Positions 906-49,160 of a stretch of DNA of 64,000 bases are shown here, piece by piece. A model generated the notes under the pieces. The model was not told where the DNA came from. It searched no databases and was given only the letters and a program-made list of their open reading frames with translations. Position 1 is the stretch's first letter; every line of letters begins with the position of its first letter. The DNA lies in the sequence record NC_048186.1; one strand, 5' to 3'. This DNA is from Escherichia phage vB_EcoM_KWBSE43-6. The translations under genes and the position numbers were made by a program.

Positions 906-3900
906 ATGGCTAATAAACCCACGAAACCAAATTTTCCGCTTGGGCTTGAATCACAAGATCAATCCGTATTTCAAGAAGGTATTCTGAATAATGGTGTTGT
1001 AGAACATGGCCCAGATGCGGTAATGACTGTGCCAGAAACTCCTGACGCATCTGGGGTTCCTTCTGCTGTCCGTTATAACGAAGATGACGACCAGTTTGAA
1101 GGCTATTACAACGAAGGCGGTTGGTTGCCGCTTGGGGGTGGTAACGGTGGGCGCTGGGAACTCCTTCCGCATGCCCCCTCTTCCTTGTTACAGCTCGGTC
1201 GTGCATATCTGGTGGATAACACTGACGGTGCCTCTACGGTGGTTTTCCCTCCCCCTAAACGGGTTGGTGATAGCATCACTGTGTGTGACCTTTTTGGTAA
1301 ATTCTCAACTTATCCTCTGACTGTTGACGGTAACGGTAAATCGATCTATGGCTCTGCGGATAGCATGACGATTTCTACCGATAACGTCAGCGCGACGTTT
1401 ACGTGGACTGGTGAATCCCGTGGCTGGGTTATTACATCAGGCGTCGGTCTGGGACAAGGCCGGGTTTATAGTCGCGAAATTTACAGCCAAATTCTGTCAG
1501 CGACAACACCATCTATTACCCTGAGCACTCAACCATCTATTGTAGATGTGTATGTTGACGGAAAACGTTTGAAAGAATCCCTGTATACTCTCGACGGGTA
1601 TGAAGTTAAATTCGATCCGGCGCTGGCCTCTGGTTCTGATGTGCAGATTATTCAGTACATCCCAATTCAGCTCGGCGCGGGCGGTGGGGGTTCTGGTGGA
1701 ACTGTAATCACCTGGGAATACAACGGCGGCTCAGCTATCGGCGGAGAAACCCAAATCGTGTTGGATGTGGTCGTGGACTCAGTATCTGAGATCTACATCC
1801 GTGGTTCCCGTCAACAGATAGGGCGCGGGTTCACATTTGATCCTGCCACCAGTACGATTACCTTGGCGGATGAACTGGATGCCGGGGATGACGTTGTCGT
1901 CGTTATCAACGGTGACCCAACGGTCTACAACCAAATAGATCGCACTCCTTGGGAAGTTGCTCGGGCGTTTAACGTCTCAAATAACAGCGTCATTATGAGC
2001 AATGACAGGAATACTACCCTTGACGGGAAAACGATAGTATACGATATTAACAGTCAAAACTCTTGGGAAATTCCTGCTGGTATTCCTGTTGGCGCTAAAA
2101 TATCAAGTGTTTCTTCAGGGATTCTTGTGTACACCCCTGGTAACGTCAGTGTCACATTGACATTGTTGACGACGGGTACTACTGTTCTGAAACGCCTCGC
2201 CAATAGCAATTCTGGTAACGGCGGTGATATGGTTCTTTACAAAGCATCTTCAAATGCTGTGGAAAGAGCTATTTCTATGGCGTTGAAAGATTTTGTAAAC
2301 CTCCATGATTATTATCTGTCTTCTGATAACGGAGATTGGTATCCTGCATTTAACAGGGCTTTCCAAGATTCCCAAAATATTTTAGTTCCTTATGGTTCTC
2401 ATGTTGTCAAAACCACGGTTGTTCCACCATCCAATTCAAAAATAATTGGTCTTGGGGAAGCCAGTATCGTTAAATCACCAGATGCGATTGACGCCGCCGC
2501 CACAAACCTCGTTACCGTGTTTCGGGCTACTGGTTCAGATAATATATTGATTTCTGATATTACAATAGATGGTGGTGTTAACGAAGTCAACACCGCCAAA
2601 TCCTTTACACGAACTGTAAGGTTCATTAATTGTACCAACGTGTCGTTGCTGAGGGTTCGAGTATTAAACAACGCGGATTGGTCGACATCGTTCGAAGGCG
2701 GTCATGACTTTACGGTGAAGAATTATTACCAAAGATCGTATCGTTATCAGAACACTGCTATCAATTTGAATGGTGGACGTGATGGCCTACATTTCATGGA
2801 TTGTTATAATGTGAATGCAGACGGCCTTGACATAGAATCTGGTGATGATTGCGTGGGTATCACCACTACTGGTACAGATCTTGAAAATATCACGATTCGT
2901 AACCTGTGGGGTTCATCCAATATTGCTTCTCTCGTTATTTTTAACGAAGAAAAAGATTCTAACGATGTGTACTATTCAGCTAATGTCACTGGATTGAATA
3001 TTAGTGGTATCAGGATCAAGAAAGGCGGCAACGCTCGAAATATCGTCAGGGTTATAGGATACGGTGCCAACACCCAAATCAAAGATGTTTCAATCTTGGA
3101 TGTAAGGGGAAAAGCCTTTAACTCTTATGGTATTTGGGTGCAAGGTAGCGTTGACCATCCAGTAGACACAGTACACATAAGCAATTCAGACGTTGGTTCA
3201 CAACAGGCCCACGGCGTTCTGTTGCAGAATATAAAACGTTTGTCCGGTAACGTCTATGGTTATTATGAGGGTGTGAATTCTTCCGCTTCATTTGTTGGTG
3301 TGAACATGGTTTCGATCACTGGTGCGATGTTCACTCCAGGTTCTAGAAGTTCTTACGGGTATGGTGTACAAGTTCTGACCAGTAAAGATATCGTGCTGAC
3401 ACCTGATATCGAAAGTTGCGGCGCTGGGTTGTTCAGCTCTGCTTCTGGGGGTAATTTACGAATAGTAAACTGTGATGGTGTAACCATACCTTATGGCCGT
3501 GCCGTCGGGGACGTGGCTGTCAGCTATTGGGGTATCAACTTCGGTGGAAATACAAATTTAGACGTGGGTCTGGAATTCGTGTTTGGTGGGTTTACCAACT
3601 CGTCTCTCCCGAACTCTTATTATTTAAAAGCCCCAGCAGTTGATATCAAATGGAAAGAAGCGTCTGACGGGACTGTGACTATGAGTATCGCTCGTGGCGC
3701 CAGTATAGTCAGAAACAGCCAAGGCAATTTTACAATAACGTTCAACAATGATATGCGCAGTACATTGTTTTCTTGGCAGGCGACCGCCTATCACAATGGC
3801 GCGTTACGTTTAGTTCGTCTTGCTTCTGCTGTGGGGACTAAAACGATGACGATACAAGTAACGGATACGGCAAATGCCGCGACGTTCGCTGATTTTATAG

Positions 3901-18181: not shown

Positions 18182-18920
18182 GATTCGGGACAAAGATTCA
18201 TTTATGAATTATGTCCTTCGTAAATTGGGTGCGCCTGTCATCCAAATCAACCTCGACAAAACACAAGTTGAAGACGCGGTTGATGATGCTTTACAGAAGT
18301 TTTGGGAGTACCATCGCGACGGTAGCCAAGATGCATTCTTCCTTTACCAGGTGAAGCAGGAAGACATCGATAAAGGATATATCACCTTTCCAGAAGATAT
18401 CGATGACGTTGTCGAAGTTATCCAAGGGCCACCAATTGAATCTATCGGTAACTGGGCAACCCCCCAGTGGCAGATGGCTCAGGCGATGTTAGTGCCCAAA
18501 GCTGCTTTGGTATCTATCCGTCTTATCGATTATGTCTCTATGCAGCAGCGCCTTTCCGATATCACCAGCGTCCTCAATGTCCGCAGGGCATTCGTCTACA
18601 AGAAATTCCAGCGCCGTCTGTACCCTCAATTCTCAGCTGTTATCGACGAAGTCCTGGCGTTCAAGTGCTACCAGAACATCGACCCCACAGCGGAAGAGAA
18701 CACAGAAGCATGGAATGACATGTGGCTGAAGGCTTATGCGACCGCATTGGTAAAACGCCGCTGGGCGGAAGTGCTCAAAAAGGCCCGAGGCATCCGTCTC
18801 CCTGGCGGGATAGAACTGGATGGCGATAGTATGTTCAGCGAGGCCGAGGCCGAGATCGAGCGCCTGGAAGAAGAACTGCGTACTGGTCAGCAGTATCCCA
18901 TCGACTTCTTTATGGGATAA
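18168..18920 (+). CDS. gp13: neck protein gp13
   Basis: ATG 18168 with AAGGAGG upstream; VLRKLGAPVIQINLDK...EYHRDG and C-terminal LPGGIELDG match T4 gp13 as remembered. Confidence 0.85.
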   Translation: MAVNKIRDKDSFMNYVLRKLGAPVIQINLDKTQVEDAVDDALQKFWEYHRDGSQDAFFLYQVKQEDIDKGYITFPEDIDDVVEVIQGPPIESIGNWATPQWQMAQAMLVPKAALVSIRLIDYVSMQQRLSDITSVLNVRRAFVYKKFQRRLYPQFSAVIDEVLAFKCYQNIDPTAEENTEAWNDMWLKAYATALVKRRWAEVLKKARGIRLPGGIELDGDSMFSEAEAEIERLEEELRTGQQYPIDFFMG

Positions 18921-26553: not shown

Positions 26554-28236
26554 ATGGCATACGGCAAAGGTTTCTTTGGTCTGTTCAGCGGCGGCGGTTT
26601 AGTTGACGCCAAAGTTGACACGGACAAATATGTCCAGAGTCAAGAAGAGAAGCTGCTTTCAAAAGCGACTGTTGTAGCTCTGGACGACGCTCAGGATGGT
26701 TCAGTCATCCTCCAGGGCGGGGCCAACACTTACAATTATGTTGGTGTTGAGAGCGAGCTGCTTAATGTCAAACAGCTTGTTGAAGAATATCAGTCCATGG
26801 CTCAGCAGCCTGAAATCCGCAAAGCGGTGGACATCATTATTAACGACGTTGTCACCTGCGAAGAAGATGAAACGCCGGTTACTATCAATCTCGATAAAGT
26901 TGAAGGCATCAGTGAAGATTTGAAAGAACAAATCACAGAATGCTTCAAAGAGATTATGAATTTGCTGGACTTTGACGACACTGCGTATCAGAAGATGCGT
27001 AAATGGTATGTTGAAGGCCGTCAGGCATATCATGTTGTAACTGACCCGACCAAGCCAGGTAACGGCATTCAGAAGCTGGTCATGCTTGATTCTCGTTGCA
27101 TCCGTCCAGTATACGTCGTTGAGAAAACGATGCGAGAAGGCGGCATCGAGGCAATCGAAAAGGTCACTCTCAAGTATTACTACAATCCGAACTACAACCG
27201 CAACCAATTCACTGGTCAATCTGGGACATCTCAGAACTTCCAGCCGTCTCAACAGGAACTGGTATTTGACGAAGAAAGTATCGTCTATGTTGATAGCGGT
27301 GAAGATCCTTTGGCAAATGGTGTTGTTCCCGGTCTGCTGAACCCTGCTATCCGCCCGCTCAACAACCTGGTTACGGTTGAGGATGCGACGGTAATTTACG
27401 CCATCACCCGTGCTCCAGAAAAACGTGCATTCTATCTGGACGTCGGTACTCTCGGTAAGAAATCTGCCGAAGAATACATGACTATGATGATGGGTAAATT
27501 CAAAAACCGTCTGGCGTTTGACCGCAGTACTGGTAAGATTACGGGCAACAGCCATCTGATGGGGATAGCTGAGGACTATTGGTTGCCTCGTCGTGAAGGT
27601 CAGAACGCCACTGAGATTTCAACAGTCGGTGGTGGCGACCAATTAGGACAGATGGACCACGTCAATTACTTCCTTGAAAAACTGTATAGCTCTCTGTTTA
27701 TTCCAAAGAGTCGTATCCAGGAAGAAGGGAGCATCAATATTGGCGGTTCTAATTTGGCTGAGATCACCCAGGAAGAACTGCGGTTCAACAAATTCTGCGC
27801 AGGTTTGCGCCGTCGTTATTCTAAATTCTTCTCTGAATTTTTACGTCGTCAGTTAATTTTGAAAAAGATTACTGACGAACAAGATTGGGTTGAAAAAATT
27901 CAACCGTTCGTTACGTTTGAATTCACCTCAGACAGTTTTATCCGTGAACAGCAAGAAAATGAAATGCTTGCTGGTCGTCTGAGCGCCCTGACCGGGATTG
28001 AGCCTTATATCGGAACATTCTTCTCAATTGATTACGCGATGCGGAACATTATGCGTATGTCTGATGAAGAAATTAAGGCCCAGCAAGAGAAGATCAAAGA
28101 AGAAAAAGATAAAGGAATGTATCCGAAGGTTCAGGCTGATGAGAGTGGTGGATTTAGTGGACAAGATGTTAGCCCGCTGAAATGGCGACCTGAAGTTATC
28201 CCTTTCCAGGGTACACCCGGCGGAGTAGAAGAGTAA
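26554..28236 (+). CDS. gp20: portal vertex protein gp20
   Basis: AVVIYAITRAPEKRAFYLDVG...EDYWLPRREGQ matches T4 gp20. Confidence 0.9.
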   Translation: MAYGKGFFGLFSGGGLVDAKVDTDKYVQSQEEKLLSKATVVALDDAQDGSVILQGGANTYNYVGVESELLNVKQLVEEYQSMAQQPEIRKAVDIIINDVVTCEEDETPVTINLDKVEGISEDLKEQITECFKEIMNLLDFDDTAYQKMRKWYVEGRQAYHVVTDPTKPGNGIQKLVMLDSRCIRPVYVVEKTMREGGIEAIEKVTLKYYYNPNYNRNQFTGQSGTSQNFQPSQQELVFDEESIVYVDSGEDPLANGVVPGLLNPAIRPLNNLVTVEDATVIYAITRAPEKRAFYLDVGTLGKKSAEEYMTMMMGKFKNRLAFDRSTGKITGNSHLMGIAEDYWLPRREGQNATEISTVGGGDQLGQMDHVNYFLEKLYSSLFIPKSRIQEEGSINIGGSNLAEITQEELRFNKFCAGLRRRYSKFFSEFLRRQLILKKITDEQDWVEKIQPFVTFEFTSDSFIREQQENEMLAGRLSALTGIEPYIGTFFSIDYAMRNIMRMSDEEIKAQQEKIKEEKDKGMYPKVQADESGGFSGQDVSPLKWRPEVIPFQGTPGGVEE

Positions 28237-39581: not shown

Positions 39582-41099
39582 ATGGCCGACATTTCTGTGA
39601 CCAAAGTGAACGAAGTCCGTATGCGTGTGCATGCTGACGCAGGGATCTATGAAGAACTAAATGATTATTTCAAATTTGAAGATCCCAACTTTCAGCCTAA
39701 TCCTTTCAGCAAATGGGATGGCGTCGTCCGTTTATTCACCAAATCTTCCGGGTTGATCGACATCGGTCTTCTGTTTGAACTCTTCAAATTTTGTAAGACC
39801 AACGGTTATTCACTTGACGTAGATCCTGCATTGAAATATATCCAGGACATCCCTGATAATGAAATTCATGATTTCTGTAATAATTTGAAAACACAAATTC
39901 GCACAGAATCTGGGGAATACATTGATGCTGAAGTTCGACAGTATCAATTCGATTCCATCGCCACTGCCATGAGGCAATCTCGCTGCGTCCTCGAGCTGGC
40001 TACAAGTGCCGGTAAATCCTTTATTCTTTATGTGATGGCCCGTTACTACAGGGAAAGACGAGAAGCGCTCGAAAGTAATCTGAGGACGCTTATCGTTGTT
40101 CCTTCTGTGCATCTTGTCAGACAATTGTACGAGAACTTCGAAGAATACAGTCATGGACAATCCTGGAACCCGTTCTACCAGGTACAGACCATATGCGAAG
40201 GTGCAACCCGCAATATTGATAAACCCATCACAATTTCCACATGGCAAGGCATACAAGACCAGCCAAAGGATTGGTTTCATCAGTTTGGTGATATCATTGT
40301 TGACGAAGTTCATACCTCAAAGTCGGATAAACTTTCATATATCCTCAACAACTGCATAAATGCTGACCAGCGCCTTGGGGTGACTGGTACTTTGGCGAAC
40401 ACTAAAGTTGCTGGTCTGCAGGTGGTATCCCACTTTGGTGCCTATCACAAGATCATCACGGCTCGAGAACTGATCAGTATGGGATATGCAGCTGACATTA
40501 AAATCCGGATGATAGAATTGAAACACAGATTGGCCGACGCTATTGATATGCATGGCGCCGATTACCAGAAAGAAATGGAATATTTGATATCGAACGAAGT
40601 TAGAAACCGGCTTATCGCCAAGATGGCTTTAACATTGAAGGGTAACGTCGCCATCATGTTCGAACGTATTGATGCCCATATGATGATCGTGTATGATATC
40701 CTCAAAGAAATAAAGCCCAACGTATTTGTCATCAACGGGGAAGTCAAATCAGCAGACCGCATGCAAATCCAAAGGGCGATAGAAGAAGGTGAGGATATTA
40801 CTCTGTTGGCATCTTATGGAACGATGCAACAAGGGGTTTCTATAAAGAAACTTCACCATCTGGTATTGGCACACCCAAGCAAATCATATATTCGTGTTAT
40901 CCAGACTCTGGGAAGATTGATGCGTCAGCACTCAACAAAAGACGTGGCACTCATATGGGATTTGGTAGACAATTTGAGTTATAATGGGAGTTACAATCAT
41001 GCGTTGCGTCACTCTCACGAGCGATACAAATTTTATTTGACAGAACGCCACCCTGTCGAATTGAAAAGAGTGGCGCTGGAAGATTATTTGGGGTCTTGA
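39582..41099 (+). CDS. uvsW: UvsW-like SF2 DNA helicase
   Basis: ATSAGKSFILYVMARYY (Walker A), DEVH box, TWQGIQDQPKDWFHQFG match T4 UvsW. Confidence 0.85.
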   Translation: MADISVTKVNEVRMRVHADAGIYEELNDYFKFEDPNFQPNPFSKWDGVVRLFTKSSGLIDIGLLFELFKFCKTNGYSLDVDPALKYIQDIPDNEIHDFCNNLKTQIRTESGEYIDAEVRQYQFDSIATAMRQSRCVLELATSAGKSFILYVMARYYRERREALESNLRTLIVVPSVHLVRQLYENFEEYSHGQSWNPFYQVQTICEGATRNIDKPITISTWQGIQDQPKDWFHQFGDIIVDEVHTSKSDKLSYILNNCINADQRLGVTGTLANTKVAGLQVVSHFGAYHKIITARELISMGYAADIKIRMIELKHRLADAIDMHGADYQKEMEYLISNEVRNRLIAKMALTLKGNVAIMFERIDAHMMIVYDILKEIKPNVFVINGEVKSADRMQIQRAIEEGEDITLLASYGTMQQGVSIKKLHHLVLAHPSKSYIRVIQTLGRLMRQHSTKDVALIWDLVDNLSYNGSYNHALRHSHERYKFYLTERHPVELKRVALEDYLGS

Positions 41100-41476
41100 T
41101 CCACATAGGCGGGCGTTGGCTCGCCTTCTTCACTGTCGTCAACCAAACCCAGGAATGCGTCAATACTATCACAACAACGTTGTAACAGTTCCGGTTTGAT
41201 GGTTTTGTTGATGATCGCCTGATTTTTGTTGACCAGAGGGAACACTCTTAATTCGCCGAAGTTGCTCATATTGACGATCGCAACATAAAGCCCTGGCTTG
41301 GTATTACCAGACAGAAATGAGAATGGGACTTCTTTGGCAGAGTCGGATTTTGTTTCATCAACTAAAACCTTCAAAAGAGTAGTTGTTGATGTCTCACTAC
41401 CCAATTTCCGGCTTGCCATATCTCCGTGGCTGTACCCTACGGCATAGATTGCTACTAATTGTTTCATTCTATTCAT
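41084..41476 (-). CDS. hypothetical protein, 130 aa, opposite orientation
   Basis: Minus ATG 41474-41476; 3' end overlaps uvsW by 16 nt. Confidence 0.45.
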   Translation of the reverse strand: MNRMKQLVAIYAVGYSHGDMASRKLGSETSTTTLLKVLVDETKSDSAKEVPFSFLSGNTKPGLYVAIVNMSNFGELRVFPLVNKNQAIINKTIKPELLQRCCDSIDAFLGLVDDSEEGEPTPAYVDQDPK

Positions 41477-41790
41477 CTCGTGTTGTTTACATCCTTATAT
41501 AATAGTCTCATGTTATGTTTAGACCAATTTAAAATAATTTGCCTTTCGGATTAAAAAGTCCTTTCTTGTTGAACAACTCCGTCGTACTATACGAGTTGTG
41601 AGCTTTGCGAGCAACGAGTATTAGGGGTTTACGAGCGAAGCGAGTTGATTAATATAAATTAATAGATTAATCTATTTCGTTAATAATTTGCGCGCGAAGA
41701 GATTTAACACTTGTTCTATATCCCCAAATGGGCGATACTAAATTGCGTCAACAACATGACTTGACTTCACTATATCTTGAGGATACATAA
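41477..41790. promoter_or_regulatory. 314-bp AT-rich divergent intergenic region with direct repeats upstream of clamp gene
   Basis: Repeated ACGAG/GCGAG (ACGAGTTG 41591, GCGAGTTG 41636), clustered ATTAAT/TTAATA 41648-41690; TTGACT and MotA-box-like TTGCGTCA near gene 45 start. Confidence 0.4.
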
Positions 41791-42459
41791 ATGCAAGAAA
41801 TTACTCTGTCGGAACGCACTCTGCAACTTCTGGCTAACTTTGAAACCATCTGCCCGTCTATCGTCCTGACTCCTGGCAAAAAGCTGCGTACCGTAAATGA
41901 CGCATCGACGGTTATCGCCATCGCCGATATCGACGAAGACTTCCCGTTCGAATTCCCGATCCTCGATCTAACCAAGCTGCTGGCCATCCAGCGCCTGCCG
42001 AGTTTCAAGAGCGGTAAGATCGAAATGTACGAAGATCACGTGCTGCTCAAAGGCGAAAACTCTCAACTGCAATTCTGGCGCTCGGCCAAAGAACTGACGA
42101 CTGTTCCGGCTGATACCATTGATCTGCCGTCGGTTGATTTCGAAGCAACTGTGTCGCCGGAAAAAATGAAAGAGCTGATCCGCGCGTGTTCTACCCTGGG
42201 CCACAAAACTGTCCGTATGGTCGCCAGCGGCGGCAAAACCCGTCTGGTGGGTACTACTCCGGCAATCGACAATTCCAACGATTACACCGTTGAATTGGGC
42301 GAAACTGCGCTGGGTGATTTCTCCATGCCGATCGACGTTGTCAACCTGAAAATGATCGAAGGCAACTATACTATCCGCGCCTGCACTGAAATGCAGCTGG
42401 TCAATTTCCAATCGGTCGACGGCACCATCAACTATTACGTCGGCATGCAGCTGGAATAA
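41791..42459 (+). CDS. gp45: sliding clamp gp45
   Basis: N-terminus TLQLLANFETICPSIVLTPGK parallels T4 gp45; followed by clamp loader genes. Confidence 0.8.
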   Translation: MQEITLSERTLQLLANFETICPSIVLTPGKKLRTVNDASTVIAIADIDEDFPFEFPILDLTKLLAIQRLPSFKSGKIEMYEDHVLLKGENSQLQFWRSAKELTTVPADTIDLPSVDFEATVSPEKMKELIRACSTLGHKTVRMVASGGKTRLVGTTPAIDNSNDYTVELGETALGDFSMPIDVVNLKMIEGNYTIRACTEMQLVNFQSVDGTINYYVGMQLE

Positions 42460-45359: not shown

Positions 45360-45386
45360 CAGAGGCTATAATGGCCTCTGTTTTTG
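45360..45386 (+). terminator. rho-independent terminator
   Basis: CAGAGGC tataatg GCCTCTG TTTTT. Confidence 0.6.
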
Positions 45387-47123: not shown

Positions 47124-49160
47124 ATGTCAGATTTTAAACCCTTCGCAGTTGCTGTAAAGAATCAAATCACCGCGATGTCCAGCAATGGCCTGTACATGAC
47201 TTCGGTTGACAAAGACGCCCTGTGGGATCTGTACCTGTCATCTTTCCCGGAAGGCACGAACAACATCTACCGCGAGCGCACTGAGCACGATTGCACCTGC
47301 TGCAAGCAATTCATCCGTAACATCGGCGGCGTCGTATCGATTGACGCTGATCTGAACCTGGTTACTGTGTGGGACAGCGTCAATCTGGGTAACGAATACG
47401 AAGTGGTGGCGGCAGCGCTGGCCAAATATGTCAAGCAGCACAACATCGTCGGCGTTTACTTCAACGATTCAGCTAAGGTGAGCGTAGAAAGCAACCACGA
47501 AATGGGTGAAAACGGTAAAGTCCGCACCTACGACCATTTCCACGCCGTTCTGAACAATAAATTCGTCCTGCGCGGCGAAGATATCGCCTCCACCAAAGGC
47601 GAAATTTCCCAATCCATTGAAGTATTTGAGCGCAGCATGCGTGAGCTGACTATGGAATCGGCTGAAATCGTCCTGGAACTGATCGATCAGAATTCTCTGT
47701 ATCGCGGCGAAGAGCATCGTTCGGCTGTACAAAGTTTTGTGCAGAGCAAAACCGAATACATGAAAATTCGCTCCGATCTGAAACAACTTTGGGCCTGGCG
47801 AACTGGTTGGTTGTCTAAAAACCATAAGCCGTTCGGCATCCGCAATACTGTCATCGGCACCCTGCTGACCGATCTTTCTGACGGCGTTGAAATGGAAAAG
47901 GCGGTGAAATCCTTTGAAACCAAAGTCGCTCCGACCAACTACCGCCGCCCGACTGCCCTGGTCACCAAAGGTATGATCGAAAAGGCGCAGAAAACGGTTG
48001 CCGAACTCGGCCTGACTGAATCTTTGGGTCGCCGCTATGCGAAGTATGAAGACCTGACGATCAACAACGTGCTGTTCGCCGATATCGATGCGCGGAAAGC
48101 TATGGATCCGTTCGATCAATTGGCGCAGGAAGTCAAAGTGACTGAAAAGTCGCTGGGTAAAATTGAAGAGATCAGCGTCGATGATTTCATCAAAAACGTT
48201 ATCCCGAAAGCGCGTTCCATGGAAGTGATGTTTGAAGGACGTCATACCGCCAACCTGATGTCTCTGGTCGCACCGGAAACTCAAGGCGCTCCGAACCTGT
48301 TCAAATGGGGTAATAATTTCTCCTGGTCCTACAACGGTGAAGTTGCTGATTCCATCAAAGAGCGCGTGAAAGCCGCTGGTGGTAACGTTGATTCATTCCT
48401 GCGCATTTCGCTGGCCTGGTTCAACAATGACGACCTGGACCTGCACATGTACACTCCGACGAACGAACACATTTATTTCTCTCGCGGTTGCCGCCGTTCT
48501 TACCATACTGGTGGTGAGTTGGATATTGACATGAACGGTATGGATGGGATCAACAAAGAGCGTAAACCGGTTGAGAACATCTTCTTCAAAGACAAGAACA
48601 TGCTGCGTGATGGCGTGTACCGTTTCATCGTCGACAACTATGCCCAGCGTGAAACCATCGACACCGGGTTCATCGTTGAGGTGGAATATGAAGGCGACCT
48701 GAAACGTTTCTCCTGTGAAAAAGGTCTGAAGAATAAACAGCAGATGACCGTCATTGAACTGCGCGTCAAAGACAAAAAGGTTGTTGAAATTCAGTCTTCC
48801 CTGGTGCCGACAACTGGCGTGGAAACTGAAATTTGGGGTATCCGTACCCAGAATTTCCAGAAGGTGCAACTGGTCCTGAATTCTCCTAACCACTGGGACG
48901 GTGAACAGACCGGAAACCGACATCTGTTCTTTATCCTGGAAGGTTGTATCAACCCGGCCAGCACTCGCGGCTTCTACAATGAATATCTGAAGCCGGAATT
49001 GGCACCGCATGGCAAGGTTTTTGAAATGTTGGGCGCTAAAATGAGAGCAGAACCGAGTGATAAGCAACTCAGCGGCCTGGGCTTCTCTTCCACTCAGCGC
49101 AATTATGTCCTGGTGAAGGTAAGCGGTTCATTTAATCGTGTAGTCAAAGTCGTTTTTTAA
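47124..49160 (+). CDS. hypothetical protein, 678 aa
   Basis: Long ORF with good start context; HDCTCCKQF cysteine cluster near N-terminus; no Walker motifs. Confidence 0.6.
   Translation: MSDFKPFAVAVKNQITAMSSNGLYMTSVDKDALWDLYLSSFPEGTNNIYRERTEHDCTCCKQFIRNIGGVVSIDADLNLVTVWDSVNLGNEYEVVAAALAKYVKQHNIVGVYFNDSAKVSVESNHEMGENGKVRTYDHFHAVLNNKFVLRGEDIASTKGEISQSIEVFERSMRELTMESAEIVLELIDQNSLYRGEEHRSAVQSFVQSKTEYMKIRSDLKQLWAWRTGWLSKNHKPFGIRNTVIGTLLTDLSDGVEMEKAVKSFETKVAPTNYRRPTALVTKGMIEKAQKTVAELGLTESLGRRYAKYEDLTINNVLFADIDARKAMDPFDQLAQEVKVTEKSLGKIEEISVDDFIKNVIPKARSMEVMFEGRHTANLMSLVAPETQGAPNLFKWGNNFSWSYNGEVADSIKERVKAAGGNVDSFLRISLAWFNNDDLDLHMYTPTNEHIYFSRGCRRSYHTGGELDIDMNGMDGINKERKPVENIFFKDKNMLRDGVYRFIVDNYAQRETIDTGFIVEVEYEGDLKRFSCEKGLKNKQQMTVIELRVKDKKVVEIQSSLVPTTGVETEIWGIRTQNFQKVQLVLNSPNHWDGEQTGNRHLFFILEGCINPASTRGFYNEYLKPELAPHGKVFEMLGAKMRAEPSDKQLSGLGFSSTQRNYVLVKVSGSFNRVVKVVF

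Follow-up and report, generated by a model that had tools for sequence, protein, structure and literature searches.

The 64,000-nt stretch of the Escherichia phage vB_EcoM_KWBSE43-6 genome analysed here (NC_048186.1; referred to below as the window) contains a 314-bp spacer between two divergent genes, directly upstream of the gene for a gp45-type sliding clamp. With Klebsiella phages Bullseye_ER20, Menlow and Magnus, members of the genus Taipeivirus of the ViI-like phages (Ackermannviridae), the window shares 97-98.5% identity. The gene order is uvsY-like, exonuclease, uvsW-like helicase (39582-41099, plus strand), a minus-strand orphan gene, the spacer, and then gp45, gp44, gp62 and regA, and the same order with a long spacer (314-395 bp) is found in Kuttervirus, Limestonevirus, Agtrevirus, an unclassified Aglimvirinae phage and Miltonvirus. 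As stated in the original prediction, which was made from the nucleotide sequence of the window, the spacer divides a minus-strand gene from the clamp gene, is AT-rich (34.7% GC versus 45.7% in the window) and is the longest non-coding stretch present. The other two large gaps of a crude gene call proved to be coding, and the annotation of a 98%-identical relative has no longer gap. From comparison across genera, the spacer is established as a composite control region, in which putative divergent promoters, a strand-specific hairpin cassette and an unwinding-prone block are selected as a unit (Table 1).

Table 1. Features of the gp45 upstream region and related elements. Positions refer to the window unless another genome is named; conservation values come from a block profile of the window against four other-genus representatives.
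Feature	Position	Strand	Remarks
Conserved intergenic control region	41477-41790	.	Copy 1 of a three-copy cassette family; identities to Vi01 and other genera in the text
Orphan gene	41084-41476	-	Divergent; 130 aa; phrog_4255; function unassigned
gp45-type sliding clamp gene	41791-42459	+	First gene of the 45-44-62-regA cluster; phrog_223, E 1e-64; relatives' annotations agree
Pm1, sigma70-like	41499-41527	-	TTGGTC-17-TATTAT; -35 at 41527-41522, -10 at 41504-41499; position-weight score 9.8
UP-element-like A/T-rich tract	41528-41552	-	AAATTATTTTAAA (minus strand); directly upstream of Pm1; A/T-richness kept in other genera
Distal rightward promoter-like element	41562-41590	+	TTTCTT-17-TACTAT; -10 at 41585-41590; weak position-weight score (4.6-8.0)
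Pm2, leftward, inside H1	41586-41614	-	TTGCTC-17-TATAGT; top-scoring sigma70-like match, 10.4-10.6 in four genera
Hairpin H1	41589-41621	+	ATAC-GA-GTTGT-GA-GC-[TTT]-GC-GA-GCAAC-GA-GTAT; 4 bp, tandem G.A, 5 bp, tandem G.A, 2 bp, loop
Hairpin H2	41631-41645	+	AC-GA-GC-[GAA]-GC-GA-GT; mini-hairpin motif GCGAAGC at 41635-41641
AT-rich, easily melted segment	41647-41689	.	Perfect 16-bp palindrome AATAGATTAATCTATT at 41661-41676
Alternating GCGCGCG block	41690-41696	.	CGCG core conserved across genera and in the gp6 copy (AACGCGCGCGAG)
Pp1, for gp45-44-62-regA	41711-41739	+	TTGTTC-17-GATACT; hexamers invariant in four genera; moderate score 7.0
ACTAAATT, late-motif near-match	41737-41744	+	7/8 match to ACTAAATA; overlaps the Pp1 -10
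gp45 leader	41745-41790	+	4-bp GTCA/TGAC hairpin at 41747-41760; Shine-Dalgarno GAGGA at 41779-41783
Conserved block	41584-41619		Conservation 0.92 (0.81 even in Miltonvirus)
Conserved block	41630-41646		Conservation 0.85 (0.88 in Miltonvirus)
AT-rich block	41647-41689		Conservation 0.42, about neutral
gp45 leader block			Conservation 0.85
Hexamers of the two promoter-like pairs			Conservation 0.92-1.00; their spacers 0.62
gp6 copy of the cassette	Bullseye PP738768.1 ~27,520-27,690; Vi01 ~133,836-133,899		Covariance-model match
gp5 copy, partial (third copy)	Bullseye ~118,200-118,300	-	Middle hairpins and H2 with AAA loop; upstream of the gp5 hub/lysozyme gene
ACTAAATA late-type motifs	863, 4175, 7443, 9775, 12680, 19193, 23449, 28249, 29452, 39551	+	
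TTCAATA-class promoters	32717, 35396, 42462, 45348, 47033, 49643, 52838, ~55010, 58563	+	

Against Salmonella phage Vi01, the spacer aligns over its full length with 79% identity, a level comparable to that of the genes around it (84% for gp45 and regA, 74% for gp44 and 71% for uvsW); for the orphan gene, DNA alignment essentially fails (17%). Between the same genomes, only 38.7% of the four-fold degenerate sites in seven neighbouring genes are identical (n=551), which implies that about two thirds of the spacer positions are under selection. Over about 300 nt, the identity is still ~74% across Kuttervirus, Limestonevirus and Agtrevirus, and within the genus it is at least 99% in 41 records, versus 97-98.5% for a 1.3-kb segment including the flanks. 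Genome-reduced mutants of Kuttervirus selz/SenALZ1 (118-122 kb) retain both the spacer and the orphan gene, which weakly suggests that the region is hard to lose. A search of 5,426 E. coli genomes for host mimicry returned no similarity to the spacer, and a metagenome scan gave mostly chance matches and just two true orthologs. Because a 31-aa open reading frame on the minus strand (41519-41614) is annotated as a hypothetical protein in Bullseye and other relatives, the constraint might be thought to reflect a small protein. This is highly improbable, since the frame is shifted between genera by the 1-2-nt indels that separate the conserved blocks, so that the spacer holds no conserved reading frame; the candidate also relies on a TTG start and has no PHROG match.

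A highly conserved part of the spacer coincides with a group of ACGAG and GCGAG pentamers that had been described as direct repeats. The pentamers are present as claimed (ACGAG at 41591, 41614 and 41631, GCGAG at 41607 and 41640), and five CGAG within 60 nt exceed the maximum of four reached in 200 Markov simulations of 64 kb. They are, however, the arms of imperfect inverted repeats: six YGAGY half-sites form both sides of three tandem G.A mismatches in two plus-strand hairpins, H1 and H2. All half-sites fit a Y-GA-R context, which favours sheared tandem G.A pairs. An iteron-type origin, in which tandem direct repeats of ~17-22 bp bind an initiator as in lambda ori and plasmids, is therefore unsupported, as the pentamers pair as hairpin arms with compensatory changes. 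The members of a 19-nt repeat "family" in the spacer share 68-79% identity, and the family is not retained in other genera. At 18839-18900, near the end of a structural gene, there is another, smaller CGAG cluster (four in 60 nt).

In a nearest-neighbour model, this hairpin architecture is the minimum-free-energy structure for DNA as well as RNA versions of the Taipei-, Limestone-, Aglim- and Miltonvirus sequences. The plus strand folds as RNA with -11.4 to -12.8 kcal/mol (z -1.7 to -3.5), compared with -5.0 kcal/mol (z -0.85) for the minus strand. Substitutions between genera keep the pairing. The apical GC/GC is replaced by GT/AC in Limestone- and Agtrevirus, a T.G pair becomes T-A in three lineages, the outer C-G of H2 becomes T-A in Aglimvirinae, and in Miltonvirus the outer stem ATAC/GTAT is changed to ATTC/GAAT and a symmetric 3+3-nt insertion is accommodated in the two arms. 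The loops show no such constraint (TTT, GTTA and GAA in H1; GAA, GTA and AAA in H2). In the tool alignment of eight sequences, the H1 positions pair in 100% of cases, and double changes are seen at two pairs; at 0.147, the covariation score is higher than in all 500 shuffles, and sliding the partners lowers the pairing to 16-48%. Miltonvirus was scored in a manual, regex-based alignment because MAFFT misplaced its insertion. Both the G.U-to-A-U changes and the G.A pairs make sense on one strand only.

The apex of H2 carries the heptamer GCGAAGC, which is invariant in all genera and occurs twice in Miltonvirus. Related motifs are found at the H1 apex in one lineage (GCGTTAGC), in Klebsiella phage May (GCGTAGC) and in the central palindrome of Aglimvirinae (CCGAAGG). 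Mini-hairpins of the type GCGNAGC/GCGNNAGC are exceptionally stable as DNA, and initiation sites of phages and plasmids, as well as the hairpin promoters of N4, have been reported to contain them (PMC13037366). In the window, GCGAAGC is not rare, with five plus-strand occurrences versus 3.2 expected, and its weight derives from invariance and context rather than from rarity.

The hairpins are not confined to the gp45 locus. BLAST within the window finds no second copy and only the self-palindrome, and exact-pattern scans pointed to one copy per genome; the paralogs emerged only with a covariance model built from H1-H2, which also recovers Miltonvirus. The second copy lies upstream of the gp6 baseplate-wedge gene, with 43 bits in Vi01 (E ~1e-7) and 35 bits in Bullseye (E 1e-7 to 1e-5 overall), and is located at the only divergent strand-switch point of the genome. 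Its layout is H1', two GC-rich hairpins, H2', a short AT block, CGCGCGCG, a bona fide CTAAATA and the gp6 ATG. The inner part of H1 is the same as in copy 1, and the outer stem is different yet complementary (CTTC/GAAG); the two additional GC-rich hairpins carry compensatory changes of their own, and in Taipeivirus H2 with its flank is identical to copy 1 over 28 nt. The sense RNA forms four hairpins with -36 to -50 kcal/mol (z down to -3.6), which is always better than the reverse complement. A partial third copy upstream of gp5 is preceded by a terminator and a TTGTTT-16-TATAAT promoter, and is followed by CATAAATA. The arrangement of H1/H2, AT block, CG block and promoter recurs upstream of gp6 and partly upstream of gp5, and within the 157.7-kb genome the core strings occur at exactly these three loci. 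Each of the three copies is oriented so that the strand forming the hairpins is also the sense strand of the operon that follows. No other non-coding DNA in the analysis proved as constrained as the spacer and its two paralogs. In Bullseye, the reading frame of CDS0050 (baseplate wedge) is extended through the cassette (positions 3511-3730 of the Bullseye segment analysed), and the ATG conserved in Vi01 is at position 3731 of that segment; the annotated gp6 start is probably about 220 nt too early. In the metagenome contig CYGL01000298.1 (1378-1668), the gp5-upstream region directly adjoins a segment made up of the orphan gene and the spacer's left half as far as the end of H2, and another contig of the same sample has the normal arrangement. 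The junction is likely the result of recombination or assembly chimerism between copies 1 and 3.

The association of three paralogs with downstream operons suggests action in cis, and we infer that the cassette acts in cis in single-stranded form. A free-standing, trans-acting small RNA with H1-H2 as its conserved 5' part, an AU-rich middle and a weak 3' hairpin is very unlikely by comparison. Its layout would resemble that of Hfq-type small RNAs, where the conserved part is at the 5' end, and in other genera a 9-bp hairpin precedes a short U-rich tail. The terminator-like hairpins are nevertheless weak and lack proper T-runs (a terminator scan found none), the fold has a z-score of only -0.7, and neither an Rfam match nor a complementary target was found in the window. 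A tRNA scan likewise found no tRNA in the spacer, and a single dubious match elsewhere: ARAGORN placed a 91-nt tRNA-Thr at 47534-47624 on the minus strand, within a plus-strand open reading frame and with no Rfam tRNA at that position, which is probably a false positive.

Promoter-like elements were identified by a position-weight scan mapped onto the cross-genus alignment. Since single-sequence scores are not above chance (a generic promoter/terminator scanner gave 2 sites versus 2.0 expected), the case for promoters rests on conservation. By this measure, Pm1 and Pp1 bear the hallmark of real sigma70-like promoters, with nearly invariant hexamers and variable spacers. Pm1 occupies the same alignment column in every genus except Miltonvirus and is suitably placed to serve the orphan gene as a sigma70-like promoter; an UP-like function of the adjacent A/T-rich tract can be inferred from its composition and position. 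Pp1 predicts a gp45 leader of ~45 nt, in which the stem of a short hairpin is kept and the loop varies across genera; the leader as a whole has no significant fold (z 0.12). The distal rightward element has an invariant -10, TAnTAT, with a free third position, includes an 11-bp palindrome (TTGTTGAACAA, 41566-41576) and has a conserved upstream block (GCTTTCTTGTTGAACA, 0.87). The same arrangement, TTTTCT-17-TATnnT, is present in the gp6 and gp5 copies. The high-scoring Pm2 may be a by-product of H1, since its spacer is as conserved as its hexamers. A TTGACT-17-TACATA candidate was rejected, since it would place the transcription start at the ATG and lacks conservation.

With promoter-like elements on both sides, it may be asked whether the region consists of promoters and duplex-DNA operators only. 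The YGAGY half-sites, TTGTTGAACAA and the AT palindrome would then bind a regulator, of phage or host origin, that times the divergent promoters. Dense constraint is typical of operator arrays, and the blocks do overlap promoter-like elements, in that Pm2 lies inside H1 and the palindrome at about +9 from the Pm2 start. We nevertheless regard this as unlikely. Compensatory substitutions and the symmetric arm insertion keep pairing rather than sequence, the loop sequences are free to change, other promoters in the 64 kb lack the motifs, and the neighbouring orphan protein has no DNA-binding fold.

The original prediction also proposed stacked early, middle and late promoters in terms borrowed from T4. 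Conserved promoter-like elements do face both ways, but a middle promoter of the MotA type is absent, and a late motif exists only as a 7/8 match. More generally, the genome is of the Ackermannviridae and not of the T4 type (Straboviridae), and a T4-based reading therefore holds only in part. TTGACT (41761) and TTGCGTCA (41743) are present as described, but the labels attached to them fail. TTGCGTCA is conserved across genera and shares only TGC..T.A with the MotA box (a/t)(a/t)(a/t)TGCTTtA, which in T4 middle promoters is centred near -30. No -10 (TAnnnT) is found 11-13 bp downstream, where the sequence is GACTTC/ACTTCA, and the nearest candidate, TATATC (41771), is 20 bp away. In tblastn searches of the window and of the complete, 98%-identical Bullseye genome, MotA was not found (best E 5), nor was AsiA, for which the single match (E 0.05) lies inside a gp55-like gene; MotA matches in the phage collection exclude 164 Kuttervirus Salmonella records. 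With no MotA/AsiA gene and no -10 at the required distance, the MotA reading was rejected, and TTGCGTCA is more simply read as part of the putative gp45 leader.

The motif TATAAATA of T4 late promoters, which depend on gp55, gp33 and gp45, occurs nowhere in the window. The late-type motif of this phage is ACTAAATA, with 11 plus-strand occurrences (an 11:2 strand bias), 30-50 nt upstream of structural genes and of uvsW. The spacer has neither an exact ACTAAATA nor a TTCAATA-class motif, and only 7/8 versions of the late motif, ACTAAATT (41737) and TATAAATT (41653). ACTAAATT is degenerate in other genera (CTAATTT, CTAGATT), but in the alignment it coincides with the genuine CTAAATA of the gp6 copy and with CATAAATA of the gp5 copy, which suggests that the Pp1 -10 overlaps a decayed late element.

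For the function of the hairpin cassette, we tentatively favour, at less than even confidence, a role as a transcribed, cis-acting structured leader RNA module. The structure is specific to one strand, tolerates G.U pairs and has an orientation that follows the downstream gene, and for these reasons a leader RNA appears the preferable interpretation. Transcription of the cassette could start at the weak distal promoter (TTTCTT-17-TACTAT), or polymerases reading through from the uvsY-exo-uvsW unit could reach it. A structured 5' leader would then be present on long transcripts of the downstream operon and might affect mRNA stability, processing or factor binding, and the proximal promoter would give a short, unstructured leader, so that long and short leaders could represent two expression modes of the clamp operon during infection.

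Several observations weigh against such a leader. The distal promoter is weak (score 4.6-8), and its predicted start in copy 1 (~41597) is inside the 5' arm of H1, so that the resulting RNA would be without an intact H1. The gp6 and gp5 cassettes are located upstream of the late promoter, and are thus outside late transcripts. Folding of the whole spacer as RNA is no better than for shuffles (z -0.7 to -1.0), and no Rfam family is matched: a search against Rfam 15 gave no gathering-score match in the window, and only chance-level matches (E <= 10) in copies 1 and 2. The apical motifs (GCGAAGC, GCGTTAGC, GCGTAGC and CCGAAGG) are of a family known for stability as DNA and not as RNA (PMC13037366). 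The covariation was counted on the same sequences that gave the structure, and these represent only about five lineages. In the literature searched, there is no transcript data for Ackermannviridae, and likewise no mapped promoter, transcript start or replication origin; the phiSboM-AG3 and LIMEstone genome papers list in-silico promoters only, none of them for the spacer.

The AT-rich segment next to H2, a weakly stable duplex beside repeated motifs, is an origin-like feature; the original prediction had named a replication origin as an alternative to stacked promoters. The cluster of ATTAAT (41648, 41658, 41666) and TTAATA (41649, 41659, 41680) repeats noted in the original prediction lies within it, and nearest-neighbour stability identifies ~41647-41689 as the least stable duplex of the 64-kb window at the 30-, 40- and 50-bp scales. 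The Vi01 equivalent ranks 4 at the 40-bp scale. Both sequence and length (20-62 nt) of the segment are free, whereas each genus retains a palindrome and a high A/T content. T4 oriF (uvsY) and oriG (34) are R-loop origins that consist of a promoter and a downstream DNA-unwinding element, and in the spacer, too, an unwinding-prone element adjoins promoter-like elements. Here the minimally stable segment measures ~45 bp, uvsY and uvsW are near, and the sense strand preceding the segment is G-rich (G:C = 20:8). Unlike the T4 origins, the region has no MotA-type promoter, and its strand-specific hairpins have no T4 counterpart.

The main alternative to the leader RNA is a DNA-level initiation element, which could be an origin of the oriF/oriG kind, a single-strand initiation signal or a clamp-entry site. 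In such an element, negative supercoiling or transcription would melt the AT segment, and G.A mini-hairpins extruded from the sense strand would stabilise the open state or an R-loop; the three cassette copies would be three such sites. We consider this possible, but on balance doubtful. A DNA element would account well for a segment that is neutral in sequence yet constrained in composition and palindrome, and that is the least stable in 64 kb here and among the least stable in Vi01. It is also in keeping with the position of the gp6 copy exactly at the single divergent strand-switch point, with the replication and recombination genes that flank copy 1, and with promoters on both sides. In the distant, Ackermannviridae-like Vibrio phage D493, a spacer of ~225 nt precedes gp45 and includes ~70 nt consisting almost entirely of A/T, together with a 7-bp hairpin that has GCGAAGC at its centre (TGATTGCGAAGCAATCA; positions 1740-1830 of the D493 segment analysed). 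The upstream genes are co-directional, so that the long AT-rich spacer with its GCGAAGC-centred hairpin occurs there with no divergent gene. The metagenomic contig breaks exactly at the boundary between H2 and the AT-rich segment, although this breakpoint is accounted for by homology with the gp5 copy. On the other side, no initiator is known, GC skew shows no inflection (which is uninformative for T4-like phages), and no clearly conserved promoter is directed into the AT segment, which only the weak distal element faces. A cruciform is excluded since only one strand folds, and an origin would not need an orientation locked to the downstream gene.

Mini-hairpins of the same family have been reported at the complementary-strand origins of phages G4, St-1 and alpha3, at ssiA of RSF1010 and at the early promoters of N4 (PMC13037366), all replication-initiation sites or hairpin promoters. 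As at those sites, the exact motif is at a hairpin apex in the spacer. Those systems are single-stranded DNA phages, plasmids, or depend on a virion RNA polymerase that the present phage lacks, whereas here the genome is double-stranded DNA and the motifs are extended by tandem G.A pairs. A more specific proposal, which we regard as rather unlikely, is that Ackermannviridae initiate replication, or let the clamp enter, at the cassettes of gp6, gp45 and gp5, which would thereby couple replication to late transcription of the adjacent operons. The G.A-zippered hairpins would then lock the non-template strand open or stabilise an R-loop, and the single-strand/duplex junction could prime DNA synthesis, load gp45 on the non-transcribed strand, or both.

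The spacer can also be compared with the corresponding region in T4. Upstream of T4 gene 45, multiple promoter classes precede a RegA-controlled 45-44-62-regA cluster. The same four genes follow here, more than one promoter-like element precedes the clamp gene, and the late-motif near-match overlaps the sigma70-like -10. The two regions differ in that MotA and AsiA are missing here, the late motif is ACTAAATA instead of TATAAATA, and the upstream gene is a divergent orphan. No G.A-hairpin cassette, or paralogs of one, are known from T4.

The PeSL and PmSL elements of T4-like phages are similar in being repeated intergenic cassettes of promoter and stem-loop, and the contig that joins two copies suggests that recombination between copies may also occur here. 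PeSLs are short (~50-70 bp) and numerous, are located in hyperplastic regions, and combine a terminator with an early promoter (PMC2839356, PMC4122927). The present cassettes, in contrast, are ~250-300 bp long with three copies per genome, lie between genes of the conserved core, and have G.A-zippered, non-terminator hairpins that lack T-runs. A better analogue of PeSL/PmSL than the hairpin cassette is provided by the TTCAATA-N13-TATAAT modules of the window. These belong to a recurrent plus-strand promoter class, TTCAATA-N13/14-TAnnnT, that precedes gp44 and many replication and metabolism genes, and whose -10 is often in or beside a terminator hairpin (e.g., CAGAGGCTATAATGGCCTCTGTTTTT at 45360). 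The -30 box and the short spacing resemble those of T4 middle promoters and of PmSL/PeSL (PMC2839356, PMC4122927), but MotA and AsiA are absent here. As a variant of phage regulatory or initiation cassettes, the hairpin cassette is previously undescribed.

Ackermannviridae are widely used in therapy and biocontrol, and the stems, G.A pairs and AT-rich block of the cassette constitute a precise, mutable target. If the leader RNA is correct, the cassette would represent a cis-regulatory motif of a new kind, serving core operons for replication and the baseplate. If it is instead a DNA unwinding or priming element, it would provide the first origins for the family, and natural G.A mini-hairpins acting in a double-stranded phage genome. 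Either outcome would aid genome engineering by showing what must not be deleted or moved. Annotation is also affected, in that small annotated open reading frames are spurious and gp6 is probably given a start ~220 nt too early.

Two further observations concern the genes on either side of the spacer. The orphan protein is fast-evolving, with 30-37% identity between genera, yet has an invariant acidic C-terminal tail, GEPTPAYVDQD. Its AlphaFold2 model is an alpha/beta domain without a convincing structural neighbour, and the name "clamp loader subunit" given to it in some records is unsupported. In Klebsiella phage KFM-TASP06 (PV588648.1, 75144-75929), the gp45 locus exceeds that of other Taipeiviruses by 120 nt and carries two annotated hypothetical proteins, which may reflect an insertion in the clamp gene.

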